DNA of 64,000 bases from an uncultured Gammaproteobacteria bacterium (GCA_964643065.1 CAZXPD010000004.1:5098-69097), one strand, 5' to 3'. Shown: positions 1 to 15,796, counted from the stretch's first letter. Numbers and translations: made by a program. The notes: a model not told the origin generated them from the letters alone.

Positions 1-155
1 TTTAAGAATTAGTAATATTAAAAACTTTTTCTGACAATTAAGAGCGTTAAATATTCACAAAAGCGAAATGCAGCATTGTGAAGAGCATATCGATTAATTA
101 ATAAAAGAAACCGATATCCAAATAGTTTAAAATTACAAGATTATCTAATTCTCAG

Positions 156-209
156 CCCCAATAGATAGCGTAAATAAACCCCAATAGCCGATTTAAATAA
201 CCCGCTTAC
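156..209. repeat. Shared 3' junction of toxin/immunity arrays (partner copy 10513..10566)
   Basis: Contains an exact 26-bp match, ccccaatagatagcgtaaataaaccc. Similarity continues through cccgcttac into the stop-codon region of the last immunity gene in both loci. Confidence 0.7.
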
Positions 210-511
210 TTCAAATTATACTTACTAGCCAATACATCAAGAACGCTTTTCGTTCTTTTTCTTAACTCATTTTCATCAATAAGACTTGGATGATCTCTTA
301 TTTCAGGATCAGGCTCATAATATGCAATACCCATTCTAACTTGATTCAAATACTCATATACATTGTGATTGTAACCAAAAATCTTGTCCACATAATCTTC
401 AAGATAATCCTCATAGTTGATTACAAACTCATCTATATCAATTTTATTATTCAAAAAATCATTAGCCATTTTTATCAAAAATTGAATATGGTTCATTGCT
501 TCACTTGTCAT
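206..511 (-). CDS. Small cytoplasmic immunity-type protein, copy 3 of a tandem triplet
   Basis: Track ORF 206..529 starts at GTG. I prefer ATG 511 because all four paralogs align from M-T-(S/N)-(E/D)-A and AGGA lies about 8 nt upstream. Conserved blocks are NDFL(N/G)N(K/R)IDI(D/N)EF and RK(R/E)TK(S/R)VLD(V/I)LA(N/S)KYNL(R/K). The FLxxxIxxxEF block recalls colicin-D-immunity-like proteins (from memory, not searched). Confidence 0.6.
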   Translation of the reverse strand: MTSEAMNHIQFLIKMANDFLNNKIDIDEFVINYEDYLEDYVDKIFGYNHNVYEYLNQVRMGIAYYEPDPEIRDHPSLIDENELRKRTKSVLDVLASKYNLK

Positions 512-525
512 ATTTGGTATCCTAG

Positions 526-831
526 TCACCTGAGATTATACTTATTAGCCAATACATCAAGAACCCTTTTCGTTTCCTTTCTCACTCCATCCTCATCAAG
601 CAAACATGGCAAATCTCGAGCTTCAGGAATTGATTCATAGTACTCAACACCCATATATATATGATCAAGATATTCATAAACTACCTTATTGTATTCTAAA
701 ATTTCTTTTGAGTGATTTTCAAAATAATCTTGATATTCAATATCAAATTCATTTATATCAATTCTATTATTCAAAAAATCATTAGCGATGTTTATTAAAA
801 ATTTTATATGATTCATTGCGTCACTTGTCAT
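526..831 (-). CDS. Small cytoplasmic immunity-type protein, copy 2 of a tandem triplet
   Basis: Paralog of 206..511 and 846..1151 with the same length and conserved blocks. Separated from each neighbour by 14 nt. Confidence 0.6.
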   Translation of the reverse strand: MTSDAMNHIKFLINIANDFLNNRIDINEFDIEYQDYFENHSKEILEYNKVVYEYLDHIYMGVEYYESIPEARDLPCLLDEDGVRKETKRVLDVLANKYNLR

Positions 832-845
832 ATTTGGTATCCTAG

Positions 846-1151
846 TCACCTGAGATTATATTTATTAGCCAATACATCAAGGACACTTTTAGTCCTCTTC
901 CTCACGCCGTCTTCATCAAGAAAGTACGGGCGATCCCTAGCCTCGGGAATAGATTCATAATTTGCAATTCCCATTCTTATCTGCGCAAGAAATTCATATA
1001 TTTCTTTACTATAATTGTGGATAACTTCTGTATAATCTACAAAATAATTCTCAAACTCAATACAAAATTCATCTATATCAATTTTATTACCCAGAAAATC
1101 ATTCGACATATTTATTAAATAATGTATGTGCTTTATTGCTTCATTTGTCAT
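846..1151 (-). CDS. Small cytoplasmic immunity-type protein, copy 1, directly downstream of orphan toxin module 1163..1846
   Basis: ATG 1151 lies 11 nt after the stop of 1163..1846, with GAGGA upstream. DNA 855..1151 matches 10572..10868 with 2 mismatches in 297 bp by manual alignment. Confidence 0.65.
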   Translation of the reverse strand: MTNEAIKHIHYLINMSNDFLGNKIDIDEFCIEFENYFVDYTEVIHNYSKEIYEFLAQIRMGIANYESIPEARDRPYFLDEDGVRKRTKSVLDVLANKYNLR

Positions 1152-1162
1152 ATTTATTTTCC

Positions 1163-1846
1163 TCATTTCTTCAAAATCCATTGCAATTTTATCTTTTTTG
1201 TGTTGATTGCATTAACAATCTCACCTGTATATCTATCAATAATTACAGCCACATTATCAGCATAACGGACATAATTATTTTCAATAGGATCATAATATAA
1301 ATCACCCTTTTTTAAAACTTCAAGAATTTTTTCTGTCGAACTGATTTTACCCTGATTAATACGTTGCACAATTCTTGACACTGCATGACGATTTACCAAA
1401 TAACCGTTATTTTTCAAAGTATAATATGTTCTATAAAGTTTTTCTTTGTAAAGAGACGGATTTGAAGGTTTACCTTTGTATACTTTGGGCATTTGAGCAA
1501 CTCTTTCTTCTATAAATTTTATTATTGCTTTTTCCGAGAGCCTCTCATATACGTTTCGGATTGATGGAGTTCTAGCCAAAGCCCCTTGTCCCATTTTGCC
1601 AATAACAGGTAGAGCTTTCGCAATAGCCTGTTCTTCAATACTTGGAACTCCGGCAAAACTTGCGGAATAAAGTCCGTAGTTTATTACATCGTTCACAGTT
1701 GCTTCTCGTGATTGCTGTGTTCCGGTTTTCCAATCATAAGAAAGCGGTCTAAATCCTTTTAATCCGGCATTATTTGAAGATTGAGCATTCCCGCCGCCAC
1801 CGCCATAATTATTAACGCCCTCCTCAAACTGTCCATTCTCAGCCAT
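1163..1846 (-). CDS. Orphan toxin C-terminal module (possible BECR/DUF4258-like RNase fold)
   Basis: The N-terminal MAENGQFEEGVNNYGGGGGNA matches the Gly hinge of 3382..5082. The DNA handle 1784..1849 equals 4129..4194 with 2 mismatches in 66 bp. The C-terminal pattern NRHAVSRIVQR...ILEVLKKG...VAVIIDRYTGEIVNAI resembles the HAxxRxxxR(8-12 aa)I..vL..G...vVv....g.IiT layout of DUF4258/RelE-like toxins (from memory). Confidence 0.55.
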   Translation of the reverse strand: MAENGQFEEGVNNYGGGGGNAQSSNNAGLKGFRPLSYDWKTGTQQSREATVNDVINYGLYSASFAGVPSIEEQAIAKALPVIGKMGQGALARTPSIRNVYERLSEKAIIKFIEERVAQMPKVYKGKPSNPSLYKEKLYRTYYTLKNNGYLVNRHAVSRIVQRINQGKISSTEKILEVLKKGDLYYDPIENNYVRYADNVAVIIDRYTGEIVNAINTKKIKLQWILKK

Positions 1847-1849
1847 ATT
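1784..1849. repeat. 66-bp recombination handle (partner 4129..4194) encoding the Gly hinge
   Basis: Manual alignment gives 64 of 66 identical bases. The flanks diverge completely on the C-terminal-coding side. Confidence 0.75.
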
Positions 1850-1895
1850 TTCAAATACGCTCTTTTTTAGTTGTAGAATTTCTTATTTAATTGCA

Positions 1896-2420
1896 TCAAA
1901 AAGCTATTTTAATCGACACAAGGAGCATAACGGTATAAAAAACAGGAATCAAAAATAATGTTATTAAGGATTTTTTGTATTGCATGACATACAATTGATA
2001 CAAGCCAACTAAAAGCATCAAACTTGTAAAATATAGAAACCAACTGAAAAAATAACTTGTAACAATCCAATCATCAGTAAACCCTCTTGCCGTGATATTT
2101 ATAACTCTTCTATATAAGAAATCAGAAAGCAATAACAAGAAAAGCACTATAGACGTTGAGATGGCAGGTATTTTCCAGCTATTAATTATTTGTCTAACTT
2201 TTTCTTTAAACTTTATATTTCCAGTGTATTTATACATTACAAAAATTAAAATATAAAAAAGACCAACTTCAGTAAACACATTATTGAAAAACTTGCTTAA
2301 AATGGTGTTGTTTTGAGTATCGCTAAGAAGGAAGAATACAAAGAATGATAAGTTGTAAAGCAAAATAAACAATATTTGCGGAAAACACAAATTATTCAAT
2401 TTATCACTCATTTTAATCAT
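1896..2420 (-). CDS. Multi-pass membrane protein, candidate immunity partner of module 2420..2779
   Basis: 174 aa with about 5 hydrophobic segments. Its start ATG shares one base with the TAA of the upstream ORF (TAATG coupling). Confidence 0.5.
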   Translation of the reverse strand: MIKMSDKLNNLCFPQILFILLYNLSFFVFFLLSDTQNNTILSKFFNNVFTEVGLFYILIFVMYKYTGNIKFKEKVRQIINSWKIPAISTSIVLFLLLLSDFLYRRVINITARGFTDDWIVTSYFFSWFLYFTSLMLLVGLYQLYVMQYKKSLITLFLIPVFYTVMLLVSIKIAF

Positions 2421-2779
2421 TACCTGTTCTTAGTTATCTTATTCAGCTCCGATTTATCTACTTTTATATCTATAAGGATGTAATAATTCTTTATTTCTTT
2501 GAGTAACTGTAGAAAAAATGCTAAATTGTTTGTTGTTGTAAATATGGGATCAGCTTTGTATCTCTGTATTTTTTCTAATTTAAAATCATACTTGTCATAA
2601 ATAATAGCAGAAAAATTGCCATTTTTGTCAATGTGCGGATATAGAACTGTAGCATCATGAATGCTTCCAAACCAATCCCTATCTTTGTTTTTATCAAATG
2701 TAATTGAATTTCCATAATAATTGCTTAGGAAATGATGTTTTTGAAGCCATTCAGGAACATCATTAGTAAAAGTGTACAT
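2420..2779 (-). CDS. Stand-alone or truncated copy of the DxYDF C-terminal domain (orphan fragment)
   Basis: NSITFDK...GSIHDATVLYPHIDKNGNFSAIIYDKYDF...KNYYILIDI aligns with the last ~115 aa of 14138..15796, 12512..13336 and 3382..5082. It lacks the upstream (S/P)DC segment that the other three have. Confidence 0.5.
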   Translation of the reverse strand: MYTFTNDVPEWLQKHHFLSNYYGNSITFDKNKDRDWFGSIHDATVLYPHIDKNGNFSAIIYDKYDFKLEKIQRYKADPIFTTTNNLAFFLQLLKEIKNYYILIDIKVDKSELNKITKNR

Positions 2780-2788
2780 CCAAAACTC

Positions 2789-3367
2789 TTAGCCATACAA
2801 GAGATCGAGTCCCAAATACATATCAAGACAAAACAATACTAAAGTTAAAAGTAAAAGTAAAATTGCTTTGCCGAATTTTTTTTTATATAGCTGATAGAAA
2901 CTGGCAAGTAGCATCAATTCAAAAAAATAGAATGTCCAAATACCACTAATGTTTAAAAGATCACTTTGCACTAAAAATATTTCATTTGGAGATTTATTTA
3001 ACATAAAGCGGGATTTTTCGTTATATGCTAAGTAAAAACATAGAACTTCATATAACACAAGCAAGGTAGTCGGTTGCCACCAAACGTTAAAAAATCTCAT
3101 TATTATATTTTTAACGTGTTCTTTATCTGTAAATTTATAAATCAGCCAAATAAAGAGCCCCGAAAGAACCAATCCGACTCCCAATAATTCAATATCCAAA
3201 TCCATTTTATTAAATCTGTTAAACCAAAGATTATCCACTAAAAGACTGTCAACTAAAACTAAAAATTCCGATGAGACATAAGGAATAACAAAAAATATGG
3301 CAAACAACTCAAGATTTAAATATTTTTTGAAGAATTTAAACATTCTCATTTTATAGCATCTAAGCAA
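2789..3367 (-). CDS. Multi-pass membrane protein, candidate immunity partner of 3382..5082
   Basis: 192 aa with 4-5 hydrophobic segments, starting 14 nt after the toxin stop. Paralog of 10910..11488, with near-identical ends and two divergent patches. Confidence 0.55.
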   Translation of the reverse strand: MLRCYKMRMFKFFKKYLNLELFAIFFVIPYVSSEFLVLVDSLLVDNLWFNRFNKMDLDIELLGVGLVLSGLFIWLIYKFTDKEHVKNIIMRFFNVWWQPTTLLVLYEVLCFYLAYNEKSRFMLNKSPNEIFLVQSDLLNISGIWTFYFFELMLLASFYQLYKKKFGKAILLLLLTLVLFCLDMYLGLDLLYG

Positions 3368-3381
3368 TCCTTTGCCAATAT

Positions 3382-5082
3382 TTACTCTAGAATTTCTATA
3401 ATAAATATATAATTTTCTAACAAAGCAAAATTCTGAAGATAATAGGCAATATTATTAATCGCATTAGTTCTAGTTTTGTAAAAATCTTTAAATAGATACT
3501 TTGACACGTCTAATTTATGAAAATCATAAATATCAGAAATCACAACAGAATAATGACCTTTGCTATTCAATTTCACGTTATTTACTGTTACTTTACCAAG
3601 ACTCAGATGTAAATCCTGAGTTTTGTCAAATGAAATTGAATTAGGTGCCGAACCCGTTTTGAGTTTAGCAAGGAATTCCCTAAACTCGACTGACTGTTTT
3701 ACAGCTCGTGAAATTCTACTGTTTGGAGAATATTGCAAAACCTTTAATCTTTTGATATTGCCATTTTTGTCCCAAGTATCTATTGTTTGATCAAGCAATT
3801 TGCAGTCAGGAGTGCTAGACAAATCCTCAAGTTTGTTGATTGAATGTTTCATAAATTCGTATGTCAATGGTCTATAATTATTTTCTATATTGAATTTATA
3901 ATTAACTGCATTAAGCTTAGCTTTGATCTGAGCGTTGGTATTTTCTGTTATATTGGAGTTTGAATTTATCTCCTCATTGTACGGTCGCACATTTGGTTTT
4001 ATATTATCAAAATATGTCTGTTTATAAGAGGGCATACTTGCTATATTTTGATAAGGATCGGCAATATAAGGTTTTTCAGTTGCATATCCCTGTAAAGGGT
4101 TGCTATTGTTTCGACTTTCAGCCTGATTAGCATTCCCGCCGCCACCGCCATAATTATTAACACCCTCCTCAAACTGTTCATTCTCAGCCATATTCTCATA
4201 ACTGTTTATTTTGGCCATATTTTGCTGATACGATTCTTTTTTAGCCGTATATTTAGACCAAAGTTTTTTATGAACAGATTGATTATTATTTGTGGCTATT
4301 TCATTTTCAAGCTTGTCAAGATTAGTCTTTTGTTTAGACAGCGATACTTTAGCTTTATCTATTGCATTTTTCAGATTTCCTTTTGAAGCATCTAAATGAT
4401 GCGAATAGTTTGACACAGCCCCGGATGATTGAACTCCGCCCTCGTACTGTCCATTTTGTCCACCTGATTTTTGAGAAGTAAGTTTTTTAATGGAACTCAT
4501 CAGTTGCATGATTTGCTCTATCTTTTTCAAATCATTATTAACTTCCTCATCGACAGGGTCAGGCGCCGGACTGGGTTCAGGTTCTGGAGTAGGCTCGGGT
4601 TCCGGTTTAGGCTGAGGTTCTCCCTGCCCATCCGGTGGCAGCTTTCCATTATCAGGCGATTTTGGAAACTCGACTATTATCACTTTGCCCTTTAAGACTT
4701 TACCCTCAGGATTATTAGGGTCGGGATTAGGAGGGTTTTGATTTTGGTCGGAGTTAGGATCATTGTCAGGATTAGGATTTCCGTCTTCATCCGGTGACAT
4801 CCCCTGATAATCCCCATTTGATTGTCTGATTGGAGCAGACCTGTAATGTTCTCTGACATCAGTCCCGTCATCTTTTGTATAGGCGCTTACGTGAACAACT
4901 CCACAGCTTTCTTTTAAATCGCTTTCAGATGGTATTCCGATTACACCCAGTTGATAATCAATAGCTTTCTCATTAGCCGCAAATTCAGCCCTCGGCATTT
5001 TCGCGATTTCCTCTCTTGTGAATATTTTATTTGAATTATTTAATTTCGGGTTTGCATACCCCGAATAATTTCTTTTATCCAT
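3382..5082 (-). CDS. Modular polymorphic-toxin-like protein A (conserved N-domain, PE-rich linker, helical region, Gly hinge, DxYDF-family C-terminal domain)
   Basis: Start moved to ATG 5082 (the track uses TTG 5088). The N-terminal ~85 aa are about 85-90 percent identical to 14138..15796, including VHVSAYTKDDGT(D/N)VREHYRSAP. The linker is PQPKPEPEPTPEPEPSPAPDP and the hinge is NNYGGGGGN. No signal peptide was seen. Confidence 0.7.
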   Translation of the reverse strand: MDKRNYSGYANPKLNNSNKIFTREEIAKMPRAEFAANEKAIDYQLGVIGIPSESDLKESCGVVHVSAYTKDDGTDVREHYRSAPIRQSNGDYQGMSPDEDGNPNPDNDPNSDQNQNPPNPDPNNPEGKVLKGKVIIVEFPKSPDNGKLPPDGQGEPQPKPEPEPTPEPEPSPAPDPVDEEVNNDLKKIEQIMQLMSSIKKLTSQKSGGQNGQYEGGVQSSGAVSNYSHHLDASKGNLKNAIDKAKVSLSKQKTNLDKLENEIATNNNQSVHKKLWSKYTAKKESYQQNMAKINSYENMAENEQFEEGVNNYGGGGGNANQAESRNNSNPLQGYATEKPYIADPYQNIASMPSYKQTYFDNIKPNVRPYNEEINSNSNITENTNAQIKAKLNAVNYKFNIENNYRPLTYEFMKHSINKLEDLSSTPDCKLLDQTIDTWDKNGNIKRLKVLQYSPNSRISRAVKQSVEFREFLAKLKTGSAPNSISFDKTQDLHLSLGKVTVNNVKLNSKGHYSVVISDIYDFHKLDVSKYLFKDFYKTRTNAINNIAYYLQNFALLENYIFIIEILE

Positions 5083-5109
5083 GATCAACTCAATTCCTAT
5101 TATTTCTTG

Positions 5110-5829
5110 TTAAACATCCGTTCTGAAAAATTCTTCTATCATTGCTGAATTACAATCATTTCCTTTCTCAAACACAATCCTTCCTTCGGCGTCTCCGCCA
5201 TAGCCGTCCTGTCTTTGCATTTCAAGCAGATATTCAAGGAATTTTTCTCTTGTATATTTATATTTTTCGTCAGGTTTATAATTTTGCCTGTAAAGAGACG
5301 CAGTTCCCCACTCAATTACTTTTATGAACTTCTCGGGAATAAGAGGGACATCCGTTTCATCTGCGAGGTTCTCTTTTTCTTCTGTTTTATCTGCATTGAA
5401 TGCACAGTTTTGTGTCAAAAATTTTATTTGAACGGAATAAGAACTCTCCGGTGTCGGATCAAGTATTAATTTCCCGCCGAAAATCGAATATCTTAAGGGT
5501 TTACCGCTTCCTTCGGAAAGTTTATCGAGATCGCTGTGTTTTACAAAATAAAGCGGCAGAAGAGCTTCTTCAATTCTGACTCCGTCTTTCAAGATACTGC
5601 TTAATTCTACACTTTGCGAAATATCATACTCTTTTTGTTCAGCTGTTGTTTGGAAAGTATATTTTCTTTCCCTGAAAGAAAAAGGAAATCTCAAACATAC
5701 TTCGCCCAGTGTGTCTTTAATGTACTGTTTAATTTCAGGATAGGGCGAATTATCATCGGCAAAATTAACCGGCGGCTCCTCATGAACCAGCACACAAACA
5801 TTTTTCAATATATCGTAAAAATTACTCAT
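5110..5829 (-). CDS. Phage virion structural protein (possible head-tail adaptor)
   Basis: 239 aa, co-oriented and downstream of the capsid module. The assignment rests on position and size only. Confidence 0.35.
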   Translation of the reverse strand: MSNFYDILKNVCVLVHEEPPVNFADDNSPYPEIKQYIKDTLGEVCLRFPFSFRERKYTFQTTAEQKEYDISQSVELSSILKDGVRIEEALLPLYFVKHSDLDKLSEGSGKPLRYSIFGGKLILDPTPESSYSVQIKFLTQNCAFNADKTEEKENLADETDVPLIPEKFIKVIEWGTASLYRQNYKPDEKYKYTREKFLEYLLEMQRQDGYGGDAEGRIVFEKGNDCNSAMIEEFFRTDV

Positions 5830-5962
5830 TATAATTTCCTTTCAACAGTTGTTATTCATATTTTGTGAATTATAGATTTGTTCTTTGTTATTTTGAATGT
5901 TTATTTACCTTAAATATTAATTTTGCTAAGATTAACGTAATTTCTAATCAAATTATTCTTAA

Positions 5963-6682
5963 ATGAAAAAAATATTTTTAACTTTATTTATAATTTTTAT
6001 TTACGGCAATTTTGCTTTGTCTCAAGAGCTAAATAATAGTTATTTACAAGCAGGCAATGATTTCTATAACAGCGGAAAGTACGATTCAGCCATAAAATCA
6101 TATAAAAAGGCTTTAAAAAAAGATAATAATAATTTCAAAATATTTTATGACTTAGGGTTGGCATATACTAAAAAAGGGATGATAAAACAAGCTGTTTTAA
6201 GTTACCAAAAAGCTATCGAAATGAACCCTTCTGATGATTTAACATACAATAATCTTGGTTCTTTGTATTTCAGAAAAAAGAATTTTAATAAAGCAATAGA
6301 TAGTTACAAAAAGGCTATTGAGATAAATCCTTCATTAAATATGGCGGTTGAAAATTTGGCTAATACATATTTTGAAATAAAGTCGATTGAATTAGCTTTC
6401 GATAATTTTAAAAAATTACCGGATTCTTATTCAATGGCTTCTTGGTCGCTCAATAAGCTTTCAGCTATTTACATTATCAAAGGTGATTACACATCTGCTA
6501 TCAGCATTTATAAAAAAATGATTGAACGTGAACCTAATTCCGAAATAAATTATTTCAATTTGGCTACTATTTTTGAAATAGTTGGCTTACAAGACTTAGC
6601 CGTTCAAAATTACCAAAAAGCTCTTGAAATCAATCCTCATTATATCCAGGCAAGTGAACAGCTAATAAAAATCAGAAATTGA
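5963..6682 (+). CDS. Secreted TPR-repeat protein
   Basis: N-terminal signal-like segment MKKIFLTLFIIFIYGNFALS, followed by repeated 34-aa units with A..Y.KA(L/I)(E/K).(N/D)P. Confidence 0.85.
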   Translation: MKKIFLTLFIIFIYGNFALSQELNNSYLQAGNDFYNSGKYDSAIKSYKKALKKDNNNFKIFYDLGLAYTKKGMIKQAVLSYQKAIEMNPSDDLTYNNLGSLYFRKKNFNKAIDSYKKAIEINPSLNMAVENLANTYFEIKSIELAFDNFKKLPDSYSMASWSLNKLSAIYIIKGDYTSAISIYKKMIEREPNSEINYFNLATIFEIVGLQDLAVQNYQKALEINPHYIQASEQLIKIRN

Positions 6683-6687
6683 TTAAT

Positions 6688-7074: not shown

Positions 7075-7114
7075 ATATGCTATTCTCCTTTTTAAATATT
7101 TTGCTTTTTGTTTG

Positions 7115-7444: not shown

Positions 7445-7485
7445 TTTTTAAAGAAAGCCGGACGGCGGATTTCAACGCCGTCCGG
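7445..7485 (-). terminator. Rho-independent-type terminator or attenuator after the major capsid gene
   Basis: Perfect 10-bp GC stem (ccggacggcg 7458..7467 with cgccgtccgg 7476..7485) and an 8-nt loop. It is followed on the minus strand by the T-rich ctttctttaaaaatt. Confidence 0.6.
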
Positions 7486-7509: not shown

Positions 7510-8352
7510 CTATGATATAGTGCAAATTAATTTTGCCAGTGCATTGGGCACAACTGTTTTTGCTCCGTATACATAAAGCCCTCTTACGGCTGTGTCGAAA
7601 GAATCCTGAAGCCTGATTGATTCAACTTCAACAACCTGAGAGGCAAAGGTAACGGCATTGTTTGTTCCGGCAAGCACATAATATTTTCCTGCCGTAGCAT
7701 CGAAGTTAGTGCATACCAAAACGTCCAAACCGGCAATCTTTCCGATAGAACCTTCTCTCAAGGTATTATCGCCGGATTGAGTGGCGTGGATGAATTCCGG
7801 AGCCTGTATTAAAAGAGCTTCAATATCAGGATTAATGACAATCCAGGGTTTTTGACCTTTTGTGATAGCGTTAGCCTTTTTAAGAGCTTTTGCCATAGCT
7901 ACAAAATTCGAATAAATATTGTCTTTTGTCAGTTCAATCGGCGTTCCTTCTGAGCCTACGACATTTTCACTCGGAACATCGGCATGTTTTGCGAGTAAAA
8001 AACCGTCTTTAGCGAGGTCAATAGCAACACGGGCTCTTTCAAGATAACCGCTCATGATGTTGATATTTGACTGAGCTTTGGAAACATCGTCAACCTTGAA
8101 TGCAAAGTATTTTTTCTGGTCAATTAACAATGTTTGTAAGGGCGAAGTCAAATCATCATAAGTGATTGAACCGGCATATGTTTTAACGGTAACATTGCCG
8201 AAAGAACGGATGTATACCGTGTCGCCGGAATTTTTTATGTCCCCTTCAAAATCCCTGTTGATGCACTGCATCATAACGCCGGATTTGTCAAGAAGTGTGG
8301 TCAATTTTTTCGACCAAATTTCCGGGACAAAATTTGTTAAGTCATTAGCCAT
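7510..8352 (-). CDS. Major capsid protein (HK97 fold, P22-coat-like small type)
   Basis: 280 aa directly downstream of the scaffold-like ORF. The N-terminal FVPEIWSKK...NRDFEGDIK..GDTV pattern is typical of this capsid family (from memory). Confidence 0.7.
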   Translation of the reverse strand: MANDLTNFVPEIWSKKLTTLLDKSGVMMQCINRDFEGDIKNSGDTVYIRSFGNVTVKTYAGSITYDDLTSPLQTLLIDQKKYFAFKVDDVSKAQSNINIMSGYLERARVAIDLAKDGFLLAKHADVPSENVVGSEGTPIELTKDNIYSNFVAMAKALKKANAITKGQKPWIVINPDIEALLIQAPEFIHATQSGDNTLREGSIGKIAGLDVLVCTNFDATAGKYYVLAGTNNAVTFASQVVEVESIRLQDSFDTAVRGLYVYGAKTVVPNALAKLICTIS

Positions 8353-8497
8353 AGTTTTTTCCTTTCAAGCTAATCAGCTGGTATTTGTAGTAACGTGAAT
8401 GTATCAAGAACCTGAGATTAATTAGGAATTTGCATTAGACAGACAAAGTAAACCGGCCGGTAACATCCTGACCGGTTATGCAAAAAAATAATTTTTG

Positions 8498-9211
8498 CTA
8501 CTTTATCAATCCTTTTGCCATTTGATCAAAAATCACTTTTTCATATTTTGAAAAAGTTTCTGTATCCATCGCAGCTATTTCTGCTCTGGTAAATGCCCTT
8601 GCGGTATTTGATGAAGGTACACCGCAGTTAACGGAAGACTGAAGTCTTGATTTTGCGTTGTTATTTTCGGCTTTCATCTTCAATGCCGCATTATATCCTG
8701 CTTTATAAATCGATGAAATATACTCAACCGCATCTTCAAAGCCCTGTTCTTTCAGACTTTCATTTTGATTCATATCCATCTGTAAATATGCTTCAATTGC
8801 CTGCTTAACTTCGGGAACAGCATATAACTCCTGATATTTTGTCTGAACGTTTCTCAGGACGGACTGGTTTTCAGTCTGAACGGCAGATAAATTTTTCAGC
8901 TTGTTATCAAGCCATTGATTAGCGTATGCTTCTCCTTTATTTTTCAACAGATAATCGAAATGAGCCTGAAGATTCTGAGGATTCAGCTCTTTTTCGCTCA
9001 TTTCAAAAATCGCATCTTCATATTTTTGCCTTAATTTTCTTTCTTCTTCAAGCTGAGATAATGAATTCTCGGTTTCTTCGGCAATTTTAGGAATTGAACT
9101 TGATTCGCCGTTATTAAAGCTGTTTTGAACTATTGGCTGCGAATCTTCATTTTCATTCTGAACCGGGTTTAGACTTAGATTTTCTGATGAGGTGAAATTT
9201 TCGTTTTCCAT
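8498..9211 (-). CDS. Scaffolding-like protein
   Basis: 237 aa, acidic and helix-prone, immediately upstream of the capsid gene. Confidence 0.5.
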   Translation of the reverse strand: MENENFTSSENLSLNPVQNENEDSQPIVQNSFNNGESSSIPKIAEETENSLSQLEEERKLRQKYEDAIFEMSEKELNPQNLQAHFDYLLKNKGEAYANQWLDNKLKNLSAVQTENQSVLRNVQTKYQELYAVPEVKQAIEAYLQMDMNQNESLKEQGFEDAVEYISSIYKAGYNAALKMKAENNNAKSRLQSSVNCGVPSSNTARAFTRAEIAAMDTETFSKYEKVIFDQMAKGLIK

Positions 9212-9357
9212 ATAAACTCCTATTGTTTGTGAAATTGCGTTATAATATTGATTAAAATTTGATTAACATTTAAATTAATACTTGTTTTTAAATCCATATG
9301 TCCAATACGTTTTTATTTGCAAAGAAAATATTCTGTAAGAAAAGAAAATAGTTTTTC

Positions 9358-9696
9358 ATGATTGTTAAAATCGGATTAAATAACAGATTCAAAACTCCGC
9401 TGCAATTTTGCGGAAAACCTTTGAATTCATATAAAATTGCCGATTACCTAAAATTAAAAAACAGAATTGTAAAACTGACCGAAGAAGGCACGGCATTTTT
9501 TCAATTTTTTTTCCCCGGCGTTGAAGTTCCGGAAAGATTTATTATCAAATCCGTTATTGTTCATGGAATTGATGATGAAAGAAAAGTACCTGTCGTCGCT
9601 GTCAGAGCTTTAAAAATTAATAACGGACGAGAAGAAGAGTACGGCTGTTTAAGGACTGTTCTTTTCAAGGATAATTTTGAACCGATTGAGAAATAA
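9358..9696 (+). CDS. Hypothetical protein
   Basis: 112-aa ORF on the opposite strand inside the phage cluster. Confidence 0.4.
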   Translation: MIVKIGLNNRFKTPLQFCGKPLNSYKIADYLKLKNRIVKLTEEGTAFFQFFFPGVEVPERFIIKSVIVHGIDDERKVPVVAVRALKINNGREEEYGCLRTVLFKDNFEPIEK

Positions 9697-9802
9697 TTAT
9701 TTAGTTTTGTAAAATTTATCCCCTTTACTGTCAAAAAAATTTATTCACTGCTTTTATATTATTGTAAATTATTTATTTGTGTTCCAAAAGGAGAGTTGAA
9801 TT

Positions 9803-10045
9803 ATGCAAGTACAAAGCTTAGTCCCGTATGTTGAAAGGGTAATGGTCAGACCTGATCGAGCAAACTTCTTTACTGCTATAAATCTACTTAGTAAACCGGA
9901 TCGCATTTTCGAAGTTGTTAGCAGAAGAACGCAAACTTTTGCAGGTGGAAACAACTCAATAGATTTTATAACTCTTAAAGATACAGTTACGAACAGGTTG
10001 ATAAAAGACGTTTTTGCAGATGATGTTTTTAGTGTTTTAGCATAA
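9803..10045 (+). CDS. Hypothetical protein
   Basis: 80-aa ORF with aaaggagag upstream of the ATG. Confidence 0.45.
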   Translation: MQVQSLVPYVERVMVRPDRANFFTAINLLSKPDRIFEVVSRRTQTFAGGNNSIDFITLKDTVTNRLIKDVFADDVFSVLA

Positions 10046-10047
10046 AC

Positions 10048-10296
10048 TCACTCCCCAAAAACCTTATCAAGCTCCTCTCTGTAAAAAGAGACACGTTCTG
10101 CTTCGTTTTCAACGAATGAGAACACCTCTTTGATACCTGCAAGGTACGGGACAATATTTTCATTAGCGTTTAGAGAGATATTAGAGAGCATTTTATCTCT
10201 GAATATTTCTTTTAACATATTATAATTGCTGTCAATGTTCAGTTCTCTGAGCTTGACGGCAGTTTGATATTTAGCGTAAAGTTCCTGATAGTTCAT
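10048..10296 (-). CDS. Hypothetical protein
   Basis: 82-aa ORF convergent with 9803..10045. Confidence 0.4.
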   Translation of the reverse strand: MNYQELYAKYQTAVKLRELNIDSNYNMLKEIFRDKMLSNISLNANENIVPYLAGIKEVFSFVENEAERVSFYREELDKVFGE

Positions 10297-10348
10297 ATAT
10301 ATACCCCATAATTACTTTAAATCAGACAATATAAATGTATTGATAAGG

Positions 10349-10491
10349 TGCCGTCTCTTGAAACGGCATCGTAAGGTTTTAATCTAATTTCTATATTCTC
10401 GTGTCATTCTCAGCTCCATAGGGCGTGAGAATCTGCAAGCATTATGCGTATTCCCGTCACCACAAGGAGGGCTTTCAGCCCGACGTGGTGA
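10349..10491. repeat. Cluster of three short GC-rich hairpins (REP-like) just outside the locus B junction
   Basis: Hairpin 1 is tgccgt/acggca (10349..10368). Hairpin 2 is attctca/tgagaat (10406..10432). Hairpin 3 is tcaccac/gtggtga with an inner gggct/agccc stem (10457..10491). Confidence 0.45.
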
Positions 10492-10562
10492 TGCAAAAAA
10501 GTCAAATCCCAACCCCAATAGATAGCGTAAATAAACCCTAACAGCCAATTTATATAACCCGC

Positions 10563-10868
10563 TTACCTCAAATTATATTTATTAGCCAATATATCAAGGA
10601 CACTTTTAGTCCTCTTCCTCACCCCGTCTTCATCAAGAAAGTACGGGCGATCCCTAGCCTCGGGAATAGATTCATAATTTGCAATTCCCATTCTTATCTG
10701 CGCAAGAAATTCATATATTTCTTTACTATAATTGTGGATAACTTCTGTATAATCTACAAAATAATTCTCAAACTCAATACAAAATTCATCTATATCAATT
10801 TTATTACCCAGAAAATCATTCGACATATTTATTAAATAATGTATGTGCTTTATTGCTTCATTTGTCAT
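10563..10868 (-). CDS. Small cytoplasmic immunity-type protein, orphan copy with no adjacent toxin
   Basis: 101 aa, differing from 846..1151 at only two nucleotide positions. Homology stops exactly at the ATG. Confidence 0.65.
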   Translation of the reverse strand: MTNEAIKHIHYLINMSNDFLGNKIDIDEFCIEFENYFVDYTEVIHNYSKEIYEFLAQIRMGIANYESIPEARDRPYFLDEDGVRKRTKSVLDILANKYNLR

Positions 10869-10909
10869 TTAATGAAATTTCCTATTAAACTCGGCATGTG
10901 AAAAATACT

Positions 10910-11488
10910 TTACCCATATATAAGGTCAAATCCAAAATAAATATCAAGACAAAACAATACTAAAGTTAAAAATAAAAGTAAAATTGCTTTGCCGAATTGT
11001 TTTTTATATAGCTGATAGAAACTGGCAAGTAGGACCAATCCAAAAAAATAGAATGCCCAAAAAAAACCAAAGCCTAAAAGATTTCCTTGTTCTAGAAAAG
11101 CTTCATGCGAAGGTTTGCTTAGCATAAAACGGGATTTTTCGTTATATGCTAAGCAAAAATATAGGACTTCATACGATACAAGCAAGACAATTGGTTGCCA
11201 CCAAACGTTAAAAAATCTCCTTATTATATTTTTAACGTATTCTTTATCTGTAAATTTATAAATCAGCCAAATAAATAAACCGGAAAGAACTAATCCGACT
11301 CCCAGCAATTCAATATCCAAATCCATTCTATTAAATCTGTTAAACCATAGATTATCCTCTAAAAAAATGCCAAGCAAAGCTAAACATTCCAATAAGGCGT
11401 ATGGGATAACAAAAAATAGGGCAAACAACTCAAGATTTAAATATTTTTTGAAGAATTTAAACATTCTCATTTTATAGCATCTAAGCAA
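10910..11488 (-). CDS. Multi-pass membrane protein, orphan paralog of 2789..3367
   Basis: 192 aa. The upstream intergenic cctttgccaatatt is conserved with locus A, but no toxin C-terminus precedes it. Confidence 0.55.
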   Translation of the reverse strand: MLRCYKMRMFKFFKKYLNLELFALFFVIPYALLECLALLGIFLEDNLWFNRFNRMDLDIELLGVGLVLSGLFIWLIYKFTDKEYVKNIIRRFFNVWWQPIVLLVSYEVLYFCLAYNEKSRFMLSKPSHEAFLEQGNLLGFGFFWAFYFFGLVLLASFYQLYKKQFGKAILLLFLTLVLFCLDIYFGFDLIYG

Positions 11489-11622
11489 CCCTTTGCCAAT
11501 ATTATTTATTCCTGAATTATATACTGAATTATATTCAAATGCTTATAAAACCGAAAATGCATTAATAAAGTTGATAATTGTTTGCTATAAAATATGATTA
11601 GTTATTAGATTTTTAATAAATT

Positions 11623-12468
11623 ATGAATATTGGGAATTATAAAATTCAGTTGACTCGCTGGTTGATAAAACAACTCGCAAGCCCGTATTTGGCAATTTTT
11701 TTTATTATTACAATATCTGTCTTTTATCTGCAAATTAACGGTTGGGCAGTAAAAGATTATTATTTTGATCGAGAAAAGGCACAAATTGCGGTTGATAAAA
11801 GTTATGACGGGACATATAGCAATAATCTTATAAGAGAACTTGATTTGTTGACTAATAAGAAGTTCCTTCCCGTAAATCGGTCATATAATGCTTTAACGTT
11901 CTCTTTTATGTTATTATTACTGTTAATTATACTGAAAGTAAATTCTTACGAAGATTTTATAAAATTACCGGCTTTATCAAATAAAATAATTATATTTTCA
12001 TGGATTAATGTTTCTTATATCTTATTTTCTTATTTATTTATAGCTAAATTAATGAATGATATTGTTATTGAAGTTTTGCCCAGCACTGCTGACAGTTTAA
12101 GTATTCCTGAGTTATCAGCAGCCGTGTTTCTTTTTATTATAGCTATTCCCTATTATATTTTTACAAATCTATTTTTCTTTATTACATATAGAAAAACATA
12201 TAATATGAAAGTTGCTTTGAATAAATCTCTTCTTTTTTATAAACCGTTATTATCTTGGAAATATGGTTTTATAACTTTATTTCATATTTTTTCTATAATC
12301 TTATGTTTATTTTTGCTGATTGATTGGTTGCAGGGAAAATTTTATCTCTCTTTTTCCATCCAAATTATCCTGTCATTTATATGGATTTACCTTAATATAT
12401 CAGCTCTATCTGTACTTGCGAATAAATTTATTTCAAGTACAGAAAAACAAAACAACACCGTAATTTAA
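11623..12468 (+). CDS. Multi-pass membrane protein of unknown function
   Basis: 281 aa with about 7 hydrophobic segments. It is the only plus-strand gene inside locus B, convergent with 12512..13336. Confidence 0.5.
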   Translation: MNIGNYKIQLTRWLIKQLASPYLAIFFIITISVFYLQINGWAVKDYYFDREKAQIAVDKSYDGTYSNNLIRELDLLTNKKFLPVNRSYNALTFSFMLLLLLIILKVNSYEDFIKLPALSNKIIIFSWINVSYILFSYLFIAKLMNDIVIEVLPSTADSLSIPELSAAVFLFIIAIPYYIFTNLFFFITYRKTYNMKVALNKSLLFYKPLLSWKYGFITLFHIFSIILCLFLLIDWLQGKFYLSFSIQIILSFIWIYLNISALSVLANKFISSTEKQNNTVI

Positions 12469-12511
12469 GATAACTTTTAAAAACAGCGTTGTTTTGCCTT
12501 TATATCAGATT

Positions 12512-13336
12512 TTACTTGTTATTCAATATTCTTGCTACTTGATACTTATCCAATTTGATATAAATAACTATAAAATAATTTTTTAGCAGACCTTTTTCTT
12601 GCAGATTGTACGCAGTTTTAACTAAAATGTTTCCTTCATTTGCAAAATTATAAACATCAATAACAATGGCATTAAAATTTCCGGCTTTGTCCAAGTGAGC
12701 ATTTATAATATCGGCAGAATTAATACTGTTACGTAGATCTTGCTTGGATTTAAATGTTTTTGAGCCATTTATGAACTGTCCATTTATCAATTTGGTTTTA
12801 TTAGTTAGTATAAACTCTTTGATATCTTGAGAATGAGCTATCTTATCAGCAAGAGGGTGTTTTGAAAATAAAATAACACCGGGACAATCAGAATTACCAA
12901 GTTGTGCTTTTATCTTGGACTCCACCCAAGCACGTATTGAGGGATCGTGTATATTATTTATACTGCCATAATAGAGACTATTTAAGGCATTTCCAATAGG
13001 ATAATTTATATGTGTTGAATGCAAAAATAATTTCGAAGATTCGGGGACATTAAAAACATTTCCGTATTTTTCGCCAACGTGAGCGCCAAAATCCATATTA
13101 TTTTTTAGCATTTGGTCGAACCAATTTGGTGAATTGTTCTTACTAGAATTTTGGCTATGGATAGTCTGACTAATAACCTTACTTGAAGATTGAGCAGGTA
13201 GACCACCACCACTTCCCTGATTTCCGTACCCATCCGCAATCCCCTGATAATCCTCATTTTGGAAGAGACTTTCAATATGATTCAGAGCTTGAGAATGTTT
13301 ATTCAGAGCTTGTTTCTTGGCATGTATTTTTTGCAT
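12512..13336 (-). CDS. Orphan C-terminal module of the DxYDF family (displaced 3' part of a 14138-type gene)
   Basis: It starts MQKIHAKKQALNKHSQALNHIESLFQNEDYQGIADGYGNQGSGG, identical to residues ~269-312 of 14138..15796. It then diverges into its own C-terminus with SDCPG ... LDKAGNFNAIVIDVYNF ... KNYFIVIYI. Confidence 0.6.
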   Translation of the reverse strand: MQKIHAKKQALNKHSQALNHIESLFQNEDYQGIADGYGNQGSGGGLPAQSSSKVISQTIHSQNSSKNNSPNWFDQMLKNNMDFGAHVGEKYGNVFNVPESSKLFLHSTHINYPIGNALNSLYYGSINNIHDPSIRAWVESKIKAQLGNSDCPGVILFSKHPLADKIAHSQDIKEFILTNKTKLINGQFINGSKTFKSKQDLRNSINSADIINAHLDKAGNFNAIVIDVYNFANEGNILVKTAYNLQEKGLLKNYFIVIYIKLDKYQVARILNNK

Positions 13337-13518
13337 CAGTTGACCGTATTTAGACTGATTTGTCGTATTTACGGCTTCATCAACAATTTTCTTCAGTTCA
13401 TTCCCTTGTTTTTGCAGAGATGATTTAGATTTGTTAATTGCTCTCTTTAAATTCGTCTTGGATAATTCAATGCTATTAGAATACCTGCTGATTGCTCCTT
13501 AATATTTTGAACTGACAG
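13205..13518. repeat. 314-bp recombination handle (partner 14861..15174)
   Basis: Manual alignment gives 6 mismatches in 314 bp, and the first ~200 bp are identical. Homology extends 182 bp upstream of the orphan ATG, where TCA (Ser214 in the full-length gene, 15155..15157) is TAA (13499..13501). Confidence 0.85.
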
Positions 13519-13558
13519 ATTTATTTCCGTCTATTTCATTTTCAAGTTTATTAATCCA

Positions 13559-14131
13559 CTACATTTTCTTTAATAACATTAAATAGCTTTTGATTTTCCT
13601 AAAAAGAAATAAAAATATAAAAATTGCCAAATAGCTTCCTGTTAATCCTCCAAAAACTAACCTCCAAAATAGATCTGAATCTGAATAAAAGTAAGAGTGT
13701 TCTACAAAAGTTCGTGCAAAATATGAAGATATAATTGCAAAAATATCAACTATTATAGCAAACAATACTATCCTTAGTTGGAGGTTACTATTTTGAAAAA
13801 TAAGTCTAATCCATGTTATAATTTCCACGTTTTTACTCTGTCTTAGAATGATAAAGATTGTTAATGGTAGTAATAAATATTTTATAATTATTAAGAGAGG
13901 CATTAAATATACCGCCAACATCAATATAACAGAAATGCCCTCTATTTGTGCTTTATATAGCCAATCAATATATGAATACCCCATATATGCAAGATATGTT
14001 GCTATGAGTGGAAATATATTTGTTAAAATAATTAAATTTGCAAAAACAAATAAAATAGTCTCCCATTTTAATAGATTTTTAACTATAATTTGCCAGTTCA
14101 ATTTTTCTATAATTTTATCAATCATGAACAA
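13559..14131 (-). CDS. Multi-pass membrane protein, candidate immunity partner of 14138..15796
   Basis: 190 aa with about 5 hydrophobic segments, starting 6 nt after the toxin stop. Confidence 0.55.
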   Translation of the reverse strand: MFMIDKIIEKLNWQIIVKNLLKWETILFVFANLIILTNIFPLIATYLAYMGYSYIDWLYKAQIEGISVILMLAVYLMPLLIIIKYLLLPLTIFIILRQSKNVEIITWIRLIFQNSNLQLRIVLFAIIVDIFAIISSYFARTFVEHSYFYSDSDLFWRLVFGGLTGSYLAIFIFLFLFRKIKSYLMLLKKM

Positions 14132-14137
14132 TCAAGA

Positions 14138-15796
14138 TTATCTAGCTCTATTTATTTTAACAAAAACTATGACAAAATAATTTTCGATATTCTTATTTTC
14201 TTGCCAAGTTTCCATTTGGTTATTAATTTGAGCTTTAATGCTGTATTGATTTTTCATTTTACTAAAATCATATATATCAAAAATTAATGCATTTAAATTT
14301 CCGTTTTTATCAATCCATGCTTTATAAATTGTGGCATTATGCAAAGAATTTGCCAAATCTGTATCACGATAGAAGAAAACTGGTTTGAGAGTTATTGAAC
14401 CTTTTTTAAATAAATCATCTTTGTTTCTATATATTACATCTCTAAAGTCATTGGAATTTTGTATTTTTTTTGCGACATTCGATTCTGAGGTATAAATTAC
14501 TCCCTTACAATCTGATTTGTGTAATATATCACGGATTCGTTCTTGTAGATAAGTTCGTAATTGTTTGTCATTGATTTGTCGAATACTTTGAATCAACTGG
14601 GCATTTGGATTATTTAAAACTTCTCTAAGCCAAGTTAGCGAGTTATGGGCAAATTCTGTTGCAATGGGTACATAAGGTACATTTTTAAGTTTTCTAGCAA
14701 TATCAAATTTCATTCTATCCCAAAATTCTGAAGGTTCATGTAAGTCGGAACTTTTGAGAGTTTTATTTAAATCTGAATAAATATTTTGATTTCTGGCATT
14801 ATTATAATCTGATTTTTTATGAGTCTTACTGGCTGAGTTATTTTCTCCAACATTGGGTACACCACCACTTCCCTGATTTCCGTACCCATCCGCAATCCCC
14901 TGATAATCCTCATTTTGGAAGAGACTTTCAATATGATTCAGAGCTTGAGAATGTTTATTCAGAGCTTGTTTCTTGGCATGTATTTTTTGCATCAGTTGAC
15001 CGTATTTAGACTGATTTGTCGTATTTACGGCTTCATCAACAATTTTCTTCAGTTCATTTCCTTGTTTTTGCAGAGATGCTTTAGATTTGTTAATTGCTCT
15101 CTTTAAATTCGTCTTGGATAATTCAATGTTATTAGAATACCTGTTTATTGCTCCTGAATATTTTGAACTGACAGGCAATGACAGATTTTCTTTATTAGCT
15201 TTACTCGAAGCAATTTCTTTCAGACTGTTCATACTTTGTACTATTTGTTTTGCAAGGTCAGCTATTTCTTTAAGTTCGGAAATATTTTGTTCCTCATCTT
15301 CATTCGACGGTTGAGGATCAGGCTCTGGAGGTGGCTCAGGTTGCGGATCAGGTAAAGGCTCTTCCTGATCGTCCGGCGGTACAGGCAGCATTACCCCGTC
15401 GTTATTTTTATATACGTTTTTTTCAACACTTCCTTTATAAACACGCGGAATTTTTTCTTCACTGTTATTGTCCTGAGTATTATTATCATTATTTTCGTTC
15501 TCATCCCCCTCAACTCCCATCCCCCAACCATTTGACACTCTGTTGGGAGCAGAGCGGTAATGCTCTCTGACATTCGTTCCGTCATCTTTTGTATAAGCGC
15601 TTACGTGAACAACTCCACTGCTTTCCTGCAAATCGCTTTCAGAGGGTATTCCAATTACACCCAGTTGATAATCAATAGCTTTTTCATTAGCCGCAAATTC
15701 AGCCCTTGGCATTTTTGCGACTTCCTCTCTTGTGAATATTTTATTTGAATTATTCAATTTTGGATTTATAAATCCTGCAAAATTTTTTCTATCCAC
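14138..15796 (-). CDS. Modular polymorphic-toxin-like protein B (same architecture as 3382..5082)
   Basis: GTG start. The N-terminal 85 aa are shared with protein A. The linker is PDDQEEPLPDPQPEPPPEPDPQP and the hinge is DGYGNQGSGG. The C-terminus carries SDCKG ... IDKNGNLNALIFDIYDF ... ENYFVIVFV. It is the first minus-strand gene after the portal. Confidence 0.7.
   Translation of the reverse strand: MDRKNFAGFINPKLNNSNKIFTREEVAKMPRAEFAANEKAIDYQLGVIGIPSESDLQESSGVVHVSAYTKDDGTNVREHYRSAPNRVSNGWGMGVEGDENENNDNNTQDNNSEEKIPRVYKGSVEKNVYKNNDGVMLPVPPDDQEEPLPDPQPEPPPEPDPQPSNEDEEQNISELKEIADLAKQIVQSMNSLKEIASSKANKENLSLPVSSKYSGAINRYSNNIELSKTNLKRAINKSKASLQKQGNELKKIVDEAVNTTNQSKYGQLMQKIHAKKQALNKHSQALNHIESLFQNEDYQGIADGYGNQGSGGVPNVGENNSASKTHKKSDYNNARNQNIYSDLNKTLKSSDLHEPSEFWDRMKFDIARKLKNVPYVPIATEFAHNSLTWLREVLNNPNAQLIQSIRQINDKQLRTYLQERIRDILHKSDCKGVIYTSESNVAKKIQNSNDFRDVIYRNKDDLFKKGSITLKPVFFYRDTDLANSLHNATIYKAWIDKNGNLNALIFDIYDFSKMKNQYSIKAQINNQMETWQENKNIENYFVIVFVKINRAR
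14861..15174. repeat. 314-bp handle inside the full-length gene (partner 13205..13518)
   Basis: See 13205..13518. The offset between copies is 1656 bp. Confidence 0.85.

Follow-up and report, generated by a model that had tools for sequence, protein, structure and literature searches.

The DNA considered here is a stretch of 64,000 nucleotides (nt) from an uncultured Gammaproteobacteria bacterium (GCA_964643065.1 CAZXPD010000004.1:5098-69097), referred to as a whole as the window. Its subject is two gene arrays, locus A and locus B, which lie in the late structural operon of an SU10-like prophage and are predicted to encode polymorphic toxins together with their immunity proteins. The operon runs in the order terminase (PF04466), two XRE regulators, SU10-type portal, locus B, putative scaffold, major capsid protein, two small genes, SU10-type adaptor and locus A, and both loci are co-oriented with the late structural genes. 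The insertion points of these islands are between portal and scaffold (locus B) and between adaptor and next virion protein (locus A). On the same contig, to the left of the window, a phrog_3287 virion structural protein and an M15 endolysin are encoded. Ordinary chromosomal DNA, encoding glycoside hydrolases, trehalose-6-P synthase and tetratricopeptide repeat (TPR) proteins, occupies the remaining window. Related loci and contigs are numbered L and related proteins P in the following. The structural genes that frame the two loci are:

16211..17917, minus strand: portal, the 5' boundary of locus B (PF23899 SU10_portal; phrog_332, phrog_1216)
8498..9211, minus strand: putative scaffolding protein of 237 amino acids (aa), acidic and helical, directly 5' of the major capsid gene
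7510..8352, minus strand: major capsid protein (phrog_267, E 1.4e-52; PF25209)
5110..5829, minus strand: head-tail adaptor, the 5' boundary of locus A (PF24175 SU10_adaptor; phrog_6013)

Each locus begins with a full-length modular gene (gene A, gene B), and two types of C-terminal domain, T1 and T2, occur in the arrays. Several of the genes encode proteins with multiple transmembrane (TM) segments. Locus A is composed of:

3382..5082, minus strand: full-length putative toxin gene A, 566 aa (open reading frame (ORF) and translation; identical to P0001), with predicted delivery module at aa 1-84 (nt 4831..5082), linker rich in Pro, Asp, Asn and Glu, helical middle, Gly hinge and C-terminal T1-type domain
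within 4129..4198, minus strand: Gly hinge of gene A, NYGGGGGNA
3385..3906, minus strand: T1-type C-terminal domain of gene A, about aa 393-566, aligning with the T1 family including the invariant D-x-Y-D-F
2789..3367, minus strand: multi-TM protein, 192 aa, candidate cognate immunity for the locus A T1 (translation; position 3' of T1)
2420..2779, minus strand: 119-aa orphan, a T1 remnant (C-terminal part only), aligning to the last ~110 residues of T1 domains
1896..2420, minus strand: multi-TM protein, 174 aa, candidate immunity for the 119-aa orphan (translation; directly 3' of it)
1163..1846, minus strand: orphan T2 module, 227 aa, beginning at the Gly-hinge junction common with gene A; probable BECR-fold RNase toxin
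846..1181, 526..849 and 206..529, minus strand: three tandem Colicin_immun-family genes, 107-111 aa, candidate T2 immunities (repeat family; PF09204)
~152..205: common 54-bp non-coding junction, locus A end (alignment with ~10509..10562)

Locus B is composed of:

14138..15796, minus strand: full-length putative toxin gene B, 552 aa (ORF and translation), with predicted delivery module at aa 1-84 (nt 15545..15796), PEPEP-type linker, helical middle, Gly hinge and T1 domain
14141..14734, minus strand: T1 domain of gene B, aa 355-552 (AlphaFold model)
13559..14131, minus strand: multi-TM protein, 190 aa, candidate cognate immunity for the locus B T1 (78% identical homologue in sister-phage locus L003)
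12512..13503, minus strand: orphan T1 module, with ORF 12512..13336 (274 aa) and gene-B homology extending upstream to 13503 (repeat and T1 alignment)
11623..12468, plus strand: multi-TM protein, 281 aa, candidate immunity, convergent with the 274-aa orphan (weak homologues 3' of T1 toxins in L063 and L066)
10910..11488, minus strand: multi-TM protein, 192 aa, second copy of the locus A-type immunity gene, with no adjoining toxin (84% nt identity to 2789..3088)
10563..10868, minus strand: Colicin_immun-family gene, 101 aa (DNA 99% identical to 848..1147)
~10509..10562: common 54-bp junction, locus B end (alignment)

The original prediction, a reading of the sequence alone, had described two paralogous arrays of one common grammar inside a phage head operon. 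The ORFs were found where it placed them, a repeat finder confirms the paralogy independently, and the position in the structural operon holds as well: gene B is the first co-oriented gene after the portal, with crcB in between, and gene A follows the adaptor. The claimed distance of 6-14 nt between each full-length gene and the TM gene 3' of it stands only if TTG start codons are used, and fails with the JGI call of the locus A TM gene, which starts six codons later. By the repeat finder, the N-domain DNA of genes A and B is 87% identical over 268 nt (4814-5081 versus 15528-15795), the two 192-aa multi-TM genes 84% (2789-3088 versus 10910-11209), and the first small gene of locus A and that of locus B 99% (848-1147 versus 10565-10864). 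The orphan C-termini were likewise said to keep DNA homology to the full-length genes, and they are indeed 5'-truncated copies retaining 70–300 nt at 96–98%: the 274-aa orphan matches gene B over 300 nt (13204-13503 versus 14860-15159, 98%) and the 227-aa orphan matches gene A over 70 nt (1784-1853 versus 4129-4198, 96%). The common 54-bp 3' junction of both loci, also part of that description, was borne out by alignment; folding revealed no significant secondary structure in it. Promoter and terminator scans gave background level only. The proteins A and B are 37% identical overall, being near-identical over residues 1-84 and divergent beyond; by part, the module is 87% identical and the T1 domains 26%.

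Comparison with relatives points to the exchange of C-terminal modules that had been proposed as the source of diversity, and both the hinge repeats and the presence of the orphan T2 as a resident end in a sister phage bear this out. A word-indexed search with full-length A returned only seven homologues, which are already modular in the C-terminus, with T2 in P0004 and P0006 and T1 in P0002, P0005 and P0007. The T2 orphan of the window is 81-84% identical to the C-terminus of full-length P0004 and 43-48% identical to that of P0006. P0004 stems from L003, a sister phage with structural proteins 86-97% identical to those of the window, in which the gene after the adaptor carries the T2 C-terminus and is followed by two Colicin_immun-type genes. 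In the window, T2 now sits behind a new T1 end and its TM gene, the hinge-proximal homology being kept. The displacement of a C-terminus is directly evidenced, because the orphan T2 of the window is the resident end of P0004 in L003. Homologous recombination should, furthermore, be able to exchange the toxic end, since 70–300 nt of homology reaching to the hinge are preserved in the orphans. The sequence hallmarks of polymorphic toxins are found here, namely a conserved region with variable C-termini, a co-varying downstream gene and orphan cassettes with junction homology. As judged from sequence, the loci are a polymorphic toxin–immunity system with recombinational C-terminal replacement at the Gly hinge.

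T1 appears to be a new α/β domain, and the resident toxins of the window would be two divergent T1 alleles. A T1 profile search returned 177 proteins, none of which has a Pfam domain, and the few named ones are called 'hypothetical'. The AlphaFold model of gene B residues 355-552 (pLDDT 85.9, pTM 0.81) displays a mixed α/β fold. T1 has no Pfam, PHROG or significant PDB-fold match, and a Pfam scan of all 41 members of the T1 alignment gave only sub-threshold VWA_N matches, which were deemed not meaningful. The only invariant residues are the D, Y and Q of the D-x-Y-D-F…Q region, with several conserved Ser, Asn and Glu residues upstream. The 119-aa orphan (2420..2779) matches T1 toxins of many loci (tblastn), and extra tandem TM genes and T1 fragments are frequent as orphans in other genomes also.

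The gene next to the toxin depends on the type of its C-terminus, as the original prediction had expected for related loci. In nearly every complete locus examined, T1 is followed on the same strand by a protein of 145-190 aa with 3-5 TM segments, the gap being 0-32 nt in most complete T1 loci and up to 67 nt in others. A DUF6973 C-terminus is followed by a convergent gene with 2-6 TM segments, an SAA C-terminus by a 76-86 aa single-TM gene 19-21 nt downstream and a T2 C-terminus by a soluble protein of ~105 aa. Over 33 T1/TM pairs the mean identity amounts to 59% for the module, 38% for T1 and 27% for the TM protein, and the identities of T1 and TM protein are correlated (Spearman 0.54, Mantel p 0.001). 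The immunity profile had no match among PDB sequences. Because the membrane partner is constantly polytopic, and T1 moreover fills the slot taken by lipase, lysozyme or lipocone elsewhere in the family, its target is suggested to lie in or on the membrane or envelope.

T2, in turn, is a probable RNase toxin of the BECR fold, as judged from a structural model. The helix-helix-four-strand unit at the C-terminus of the low-confidence T2 model has CdiA-CT of E. coli NC101 as its top three Foldseek matches in the PDB (probability 0.98-0.99, E 0.07-0.10, root-mean-square deviation ~3 Å over 62 columns, TM-score 0.50 over the target). We take this contact-dependent inhibition (CDI) toxin of solved structure to be a BECR-fold tRNase. 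Of the small proteins beside T2, all seven aligned members match PF09204 Colicin_immun (best E 7.2e-8), the window copy alone reaching E 0.018, which is under the curated cut-off. T2 thereby resembles colicin D and the BECR RNases with PF09204 immunity, of which CdiA-CT NC101 (PDB 5i4q) is the best match of the low-confidence model: T2 is likewise followed by PF09204 proteins. It differs from them in that its sequence resembles no solved structure and no Pfam family. The first small immunity protein (846..1181) shows a weak, sub-threshold Pfam match to the T4 RegB endoribonuclease (E 0.08), probably noise.

The 84-aa module at the N-terminus of genes A and B had been called private to this pair. 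This does not hold, since 724 protein clusters carry it, at either protein end (clusters at 50% identity; exhaustive HMMER search), 348 of them at E<=1e-10. A profile scan with one genome per species located ~65 loci with the N-domain, nearly all in Candidatus Gastranaerophilales/Melainabacteria gut metagenome-assembled genomes. Most relatives are short proteins of 240-335 aa, consisting of module, short linker and C-terminal domain. Of the 150 best matches, about two fifths have the module at the very N-terminus, and most others have it at the very C-terminus. The fusion partners, from a Pfam scan of the 146 best-scoring representative clusters, are DUF6973 (10), the class-3 lipase/Mbeg1-like Lipase_3 (9), PBECR1 (6), the lysozyme GH108 (5), LPD3 (4), the papain-fold glutamine deamidase Gln_amidase (2) and the serum-amyloid-A/lipocone domain SAA (1). 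Further partners are an M15/VanY-like domain recognised by motif inspection and the unannotated T1; in the whole family, at least eight unrelated domain types are joined to the module. Prokaryotic SAA/lipocone domains are heads of polymorphic toxins and are countered by membrane or periplasmic immunity proteins (PMC12419801), and phage polyvalent proteins, which are thought to be packaged and injected, have PBECR1 and LPD3 as their signature domains (PMC5512222). In genes A and B themselves, neither Pfam (E<=1) nor PHROGs detected a VENN, Rhs/YD, PAAR, LXG, MuF, fibre or other known trafficking domain, in line with the absence of such domains noted before. The module profile had no match among PDB sequences either.

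The second half of the module is a separate basic, hairpin-like unit with the motif VxVxxYT(K/R)xDGTxVxxHYRSxP, which also stands alone before T1 domains in L068, L071 and L074. As an observation of its own, the motif V-x-V-x-x-Y-T-R-x-D-G-T-x-V-x-x-H-x-R was found alone in small proteins of Proteobacteria, namely of Grimontia, Alishewanella, Psychrosphaera and Massilia (L069-L078; L072 9803..10072) and six times in P0184, a protein of 526 aa. The long members P0004, P0006, P0007 and P0130/L005 have a strongly hydrophobic helix rich in Gly, Ile and Ala between module and coiled coil, which may be a membrane-insertion or translocation segment; A and B of the window do not have it. In 24 Gastranaerophilales loci a conserved 127-aa XRE regulator (MDKHTQLIKFGTVLKQRR…) is divergent from the module-bearing toxin gene (examples are L007, L011, L013, L031 and L050, at ~9450..9850, minus strand), suggesting regulated expression of the chromosomal cassettes.

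The first half of the module is related to the phage's own scaffold. The putative scaffolding protein ends in FTRAEIAAMDTETFSKYEKVIFDQMAKGLIK and its last ~50 residues are homologous to the first half of the module, which opens with KIFTREEIAKMPRAEFAANEKAIDYQLGVIGIP in the toxins. An hhalign comparison of the module with six scaffold-position proteins gave 97% probability and E 1.1e-10 over 52 columns, and the match stops at the scaffold C-terminus. Of the 80 related IMG/VR contigs kept, 65 encode beside the capsid gene a scaffold-position protein whose C-terminus bears the motif, and among the 57 related viral contigs scored at all by the module hidden Markov model, most are matched within the final ~30 residues of a scaffold-like protein. 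A distant archaeal virus of the Methanosarcinales has the motif as well, in the protein immediately 5' of its phrog_267 capsid gene (…SFTRQQIKDMTPEEFSKNESAIHEAMAKGEIK). Because it is found at scaffold ends both in the related contigs and in this virus, the motif travels with the phrog_267 capsid lineage. For the scaffolding protein of phage 80α it was shown that the last 16-21 residues form a helix-and-hook binding the N-arm of the capsid protein, and the satellite protein CpmB copies this segment and thereby enters the procapsid (PMC5644958). By analogy, the first half of the module may be a capsid-docking tag, and the toxins are suggested by this homology to travel inside virus particles. 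The idea of a virion-packaged toxin gains a mechanism in this way, since a loose notion of packaging becomes the specific and testable one of a capsid ride via scaffold mimicry. That the module stands at either terminus would fit a docking tag and not a signal peptide. Moreover, phage contigs of the lineage encode other tagged enzymes near head genes, with divergent TM genes (DUF6973 with module in L121, L033 and L057; lipase with motif in L079), and some module proteins hold a tandem copy retaining even the 'GLI' hook. Phage proteins of ~310 aa that join two scaffold-like FT(R)EEI motifs to a DUF6973-like domain (L057 8684..9643, L108 10216..11142, L062 767..1699) end in G(R/H)WVTINGNHV(L/F)I in place of the hairpin motif, which may be an alternative docking end.

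Neither locus belongs to the standard equipment of these phages. In the related viral contigs L083, L085 and L087 the adaptor is directly followed by the p484 homologue (empty site A), and in L083, L086 and L088 portal, scaffold and capsid are consecutive with no island between them (empty site B). Because related phages have empty sites at both positions, both loci are best taken, on this comparison of gene order, as accessory insertions or cargo and not as core virion genes. The original prediction saw them at positions usual for capsid-internal or ejected proteins, but they are not standard internal-virion genes, as closely related phages are without either locus. The best isolate match of the capsid protein is a Microcystis phage. 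This match and the taxonomy of the related loci point, indirectly, to a probable host of Melainabacteria type.

We consider it probable, if far from certain, that both loci are accessory islands of polymorphic toxin and immunity genes, inserted among the late structural genes of an SU10-like prophage, and that the module docks the toxin by scaffold mimicry. The full-length gene would then have five parts: a delivery module copied from the scaffold, a disordered linker rich in Pro, Glu, Asp and Asn, a helical region, the Gly hinge and, at the C-terminus, a toxin that can be replaced. What the first half of the module would copy is the presumably capsid-binding C-terminal end of the scaffold. 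C-termini that have been displaced would persist 3' of the full-length gene as orphans, promoterless and truncated at the 5' end, together with immunity genes of their own; the putative stock in the window comprises one T2, one T1 and a further T1 remnant. In late gene expression, the module would dock the toxin inside the procapsid, the particle would then release it into the envelope of the next cell, and lysogens with matching immunity genes would be spared.

Several observations weigh against this explanation. The module had no match in 50,697 deposited phage genomes, most family members in Gastranaerophilales genomes lie in small chromosomal islands with a divergent XRE regulator away from phage structural genes, and a PHROG scan of 117 neighbour proteins from 18 loci revealed no enrichment for structural genes. 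Since most members are outside recognisable prophages, packaging would need to act in trans, or else the module serves some other purpose. In the toxins, the scaffold-like 'hook' lies internally and not at the C-terminus. For the toxic ends, the T1 model found nothing significant in Foldseek (best E 0.095 in the PDB and 6e-3 among the BFVD viral models). The T2 model is of low confidence (pLDDT 48.5 overall, 57-77 in the C-terminal domain) because only four homologues exist, the T2 profile had no match among PDB sequences, and an hhalign comparison of T2 with PBECR1-bearing module proteins was negative, giving no sequence-level BECR/PBECR1 link.

The strongest competitor, which we regard as less likely but serious, is that the same toxin–immunity system is not packaged in virions but bacteriocin-like, comparable to colicin M and pectocins. 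The toxins would be freed by lysis of the prophage or by other export, the N-module would be a receptor-binding or translocation domain carrying a periplasm-acting toxin into neighbouring cells, and the islands would be morons. It accounts well for the many members outside recognisable prophages with their own divergent XRE regulator and for fused domains that mostly target periplasm or membrane (lipase, GH108, M15 peptidase, SAA/lipocone). The candidate immunities, like those of M-class bacteriocins, are membrane proteins, the long forms are colicin-like in their order of disordered linker, coiled coil and toxin, and related phages manage without the islands. However, it leaves unexplained the homology of the module to the scaffold C-terminus, the C-terminal position of the module in about half of the family and the fusions to PBECR1 and LPD3. 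The genes of the window are, moreover, co-oriented within the late structural operon, no lysis gene adjoins the loci, and no TonB or TolB box was identified, no dedicated test for these having been made.

Scaffold mimicry and the position within the structural operon are also expected if the proteins are ejected enzymes that breach the envelope for the phage's own entry, as T7 gp16 and virion-associated peptidoglycan hydrolases do. The TM genes would then serve superinfection exclusion against relatives, in an arms race of phage and lysogen and not in bacterial competition. The fusions of the module to GH108 lysozyme, M15-like peptidase and lipases and the membrane nature of the partner proteins are in agreement with such a role. 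We nevertheless judge it unlikely, as T2, a probable RNase with cytoplasmic Colicin_immun partners, would suit a toxin and not an enzyme of entry; orphan arrays, and cassettes of XRE, toxin and immunity genes that lie in the chromosome at a distance from any phage, typify inter-bacterial toxins; and close relatives infect without these genes. That the proteins are ordinary tail fibres or receptor-binding proteins with variable tips and downstream chaperones, which the variable C-termini with adjoining small genes and the nearby adaptor superficially resemble, is highly improbable and effectively refuted by the lack of any PHROG or Pfam structural family match, by partners that are multi-pass membrane or Colicin_immun proteins, and by a mostly non-phage family with empty sites in related phages.

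Returning to packaging by scaffold mimicry, a wider and clearly more tentative idea is that the module is a natural capsid cargo-loading tag of scaffold origin. It would load toxins and enzymes into the capsids of this lineage, including chromosomal toxins of Melainabacteria in trans, and the particles would serve as the toxin-delivery system of that phylum, for which we know of no recognised contact-dependent toxin secretion machinery. Short terminal tags loading cargo into an HK97-fold shell are familiar from encapsulin cargo-loading peptides and T4 capsid-targeting sequences, and colicin M-class bacteriocins and pectocins combine a small targeting domain, a linker, a periplasm-acting toxin and a membrane-anchored immunity protein. 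To the module toxins, all of these are functional analogies only, no homology having been found.

Among known systems, the MuF polymorphic toxins (Jamet et al. 2017, PMC5576092) come close, being phage-borne with a conserved head-associated N-terminal region, a variable C-terminal toxin, a downstream immunity gene and proposed virion delivery; their gene lies just after the portal, a position shared by locus B only, locus A being elsewhere. They differ in their MuF domain (PF04233/PF06152), a portal-binding region of ~300 aa in place of the 84-aa scaffold-related module, and in lacking the second locus after the adaptor and the orphan arrays of the window. Furthermore, 96% of muf genes are in prophages or remnants (PMC5576092), whereas most members of the 84-aa-module family are not prophage-borne. 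With polymorphic toxin systems in general (Zhang et al. 2012, PMC3482391) the loci share C-terminal replacement at a conserved junction, an immunity gene immediately 3' and displaced orphan pairs with junction homology. Unlike the CDI/Rhs-type systems, they have no VENN, YD/Rhs, PAAR, LXG or signal peptide, their junction is a Gly hinge and the module occurs at either end. Membership in MuF, CDI or Rhs is rejected, as Pfam revealed no MuF, VENN, YD, PAAR or FHA domain and no CdiB partner. SaPI1 CpmB of the 80α system (PMC5644958) is likewise a non-scaffold protein with a copy of the scaffold's C-terminal capsid-binding segment, capsid binding being deduced by analogy in our case; it differs in redirecting capsid size, while here the segment sits on toxins and enzymes and is followed by more sequence. 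Polyvalent proteins of phages and conjugative elements (Iyer et al. 2017, PMC5512222) share the PBECR1 and LPD3 domains fused to module relatives and the predicted co-delivery with DNA. They are, however, multi-effector polyproteins with processing peptidases, while the proteins of the window combine a single effector with an immunity gene and orphan cassettes.

Since no MuF, VENN, YD or PAAR domain is present, the loci are set apart from MuF and CDI/Rhs and would represent a new polymorphic-toxin family in which the delivery tag derives from the scaffold and the toxin domain is new as well. It is the delivery domain that defines a family of polymorphic toxins, and here both the module and T1 match no Pfam, PHROG or PDB entry; the family is, moreover, abundant in gut Melainabacteria, a poorly studied lineage. 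If true, packaging by the module would provide a natural cargo-loading tag for tailed-phage capsids, with a bearing on phage biology, microbiome competition and capsid engineering.

Some further features of the region are recorded here. No tRNA genes mark an attachment site. The crcB fluoride-channel gene between portal and toxin B (PF02537; 15867..16247, plus strand) is 90% identical at the aa level in the sister phage L004, and an Rfam scan detected no family and no fluoride riboswitch 5' of it. Another opposite-strand insertion, between adaptor and small head genes, is a TPR-repeat protein of 239 aa with a signal-peptide-like N-terminus (5963..6682, plus strand), which tblastn did not find in the sister-phage locus L003. 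Directly 3' of the capsid gene lies an intrinsic-terminator-like hairpin (7458..7485, minus strand) with a 10-bp stem, nine G-C pairs and a T-rich tail. The two XRE/Cro-type helix-turn-helix regulators between terminase and portal, an unusual place, are paralogous (18732..19055 and 19259..19591, minus strand) and only marginally similar to the 127-aa XRE of the chromosomal cassettes (23% identity, E ~0.01). A few kb past the terminase side, a gene for an OLD-like TOPRIM nuclease (PF20469; 26179..27378, minus strand) is a candidate for anti-phage defence. A sister phage group (L081, L046, L057, L079) has a capsid ~55% identical to that of the window and the head order capsid, scaffold-like, portal, terminase on one strand. 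The host genes include a patatin-like phospholipase (41216..42193, plus strand) and a protein with a type IV pilin N-methylation motif (36631..37344, minus strand), and pilin-like N-termini also recur beside toxin cassettes in Gastranaerophilales loci, for example in L031, L050 and L036.

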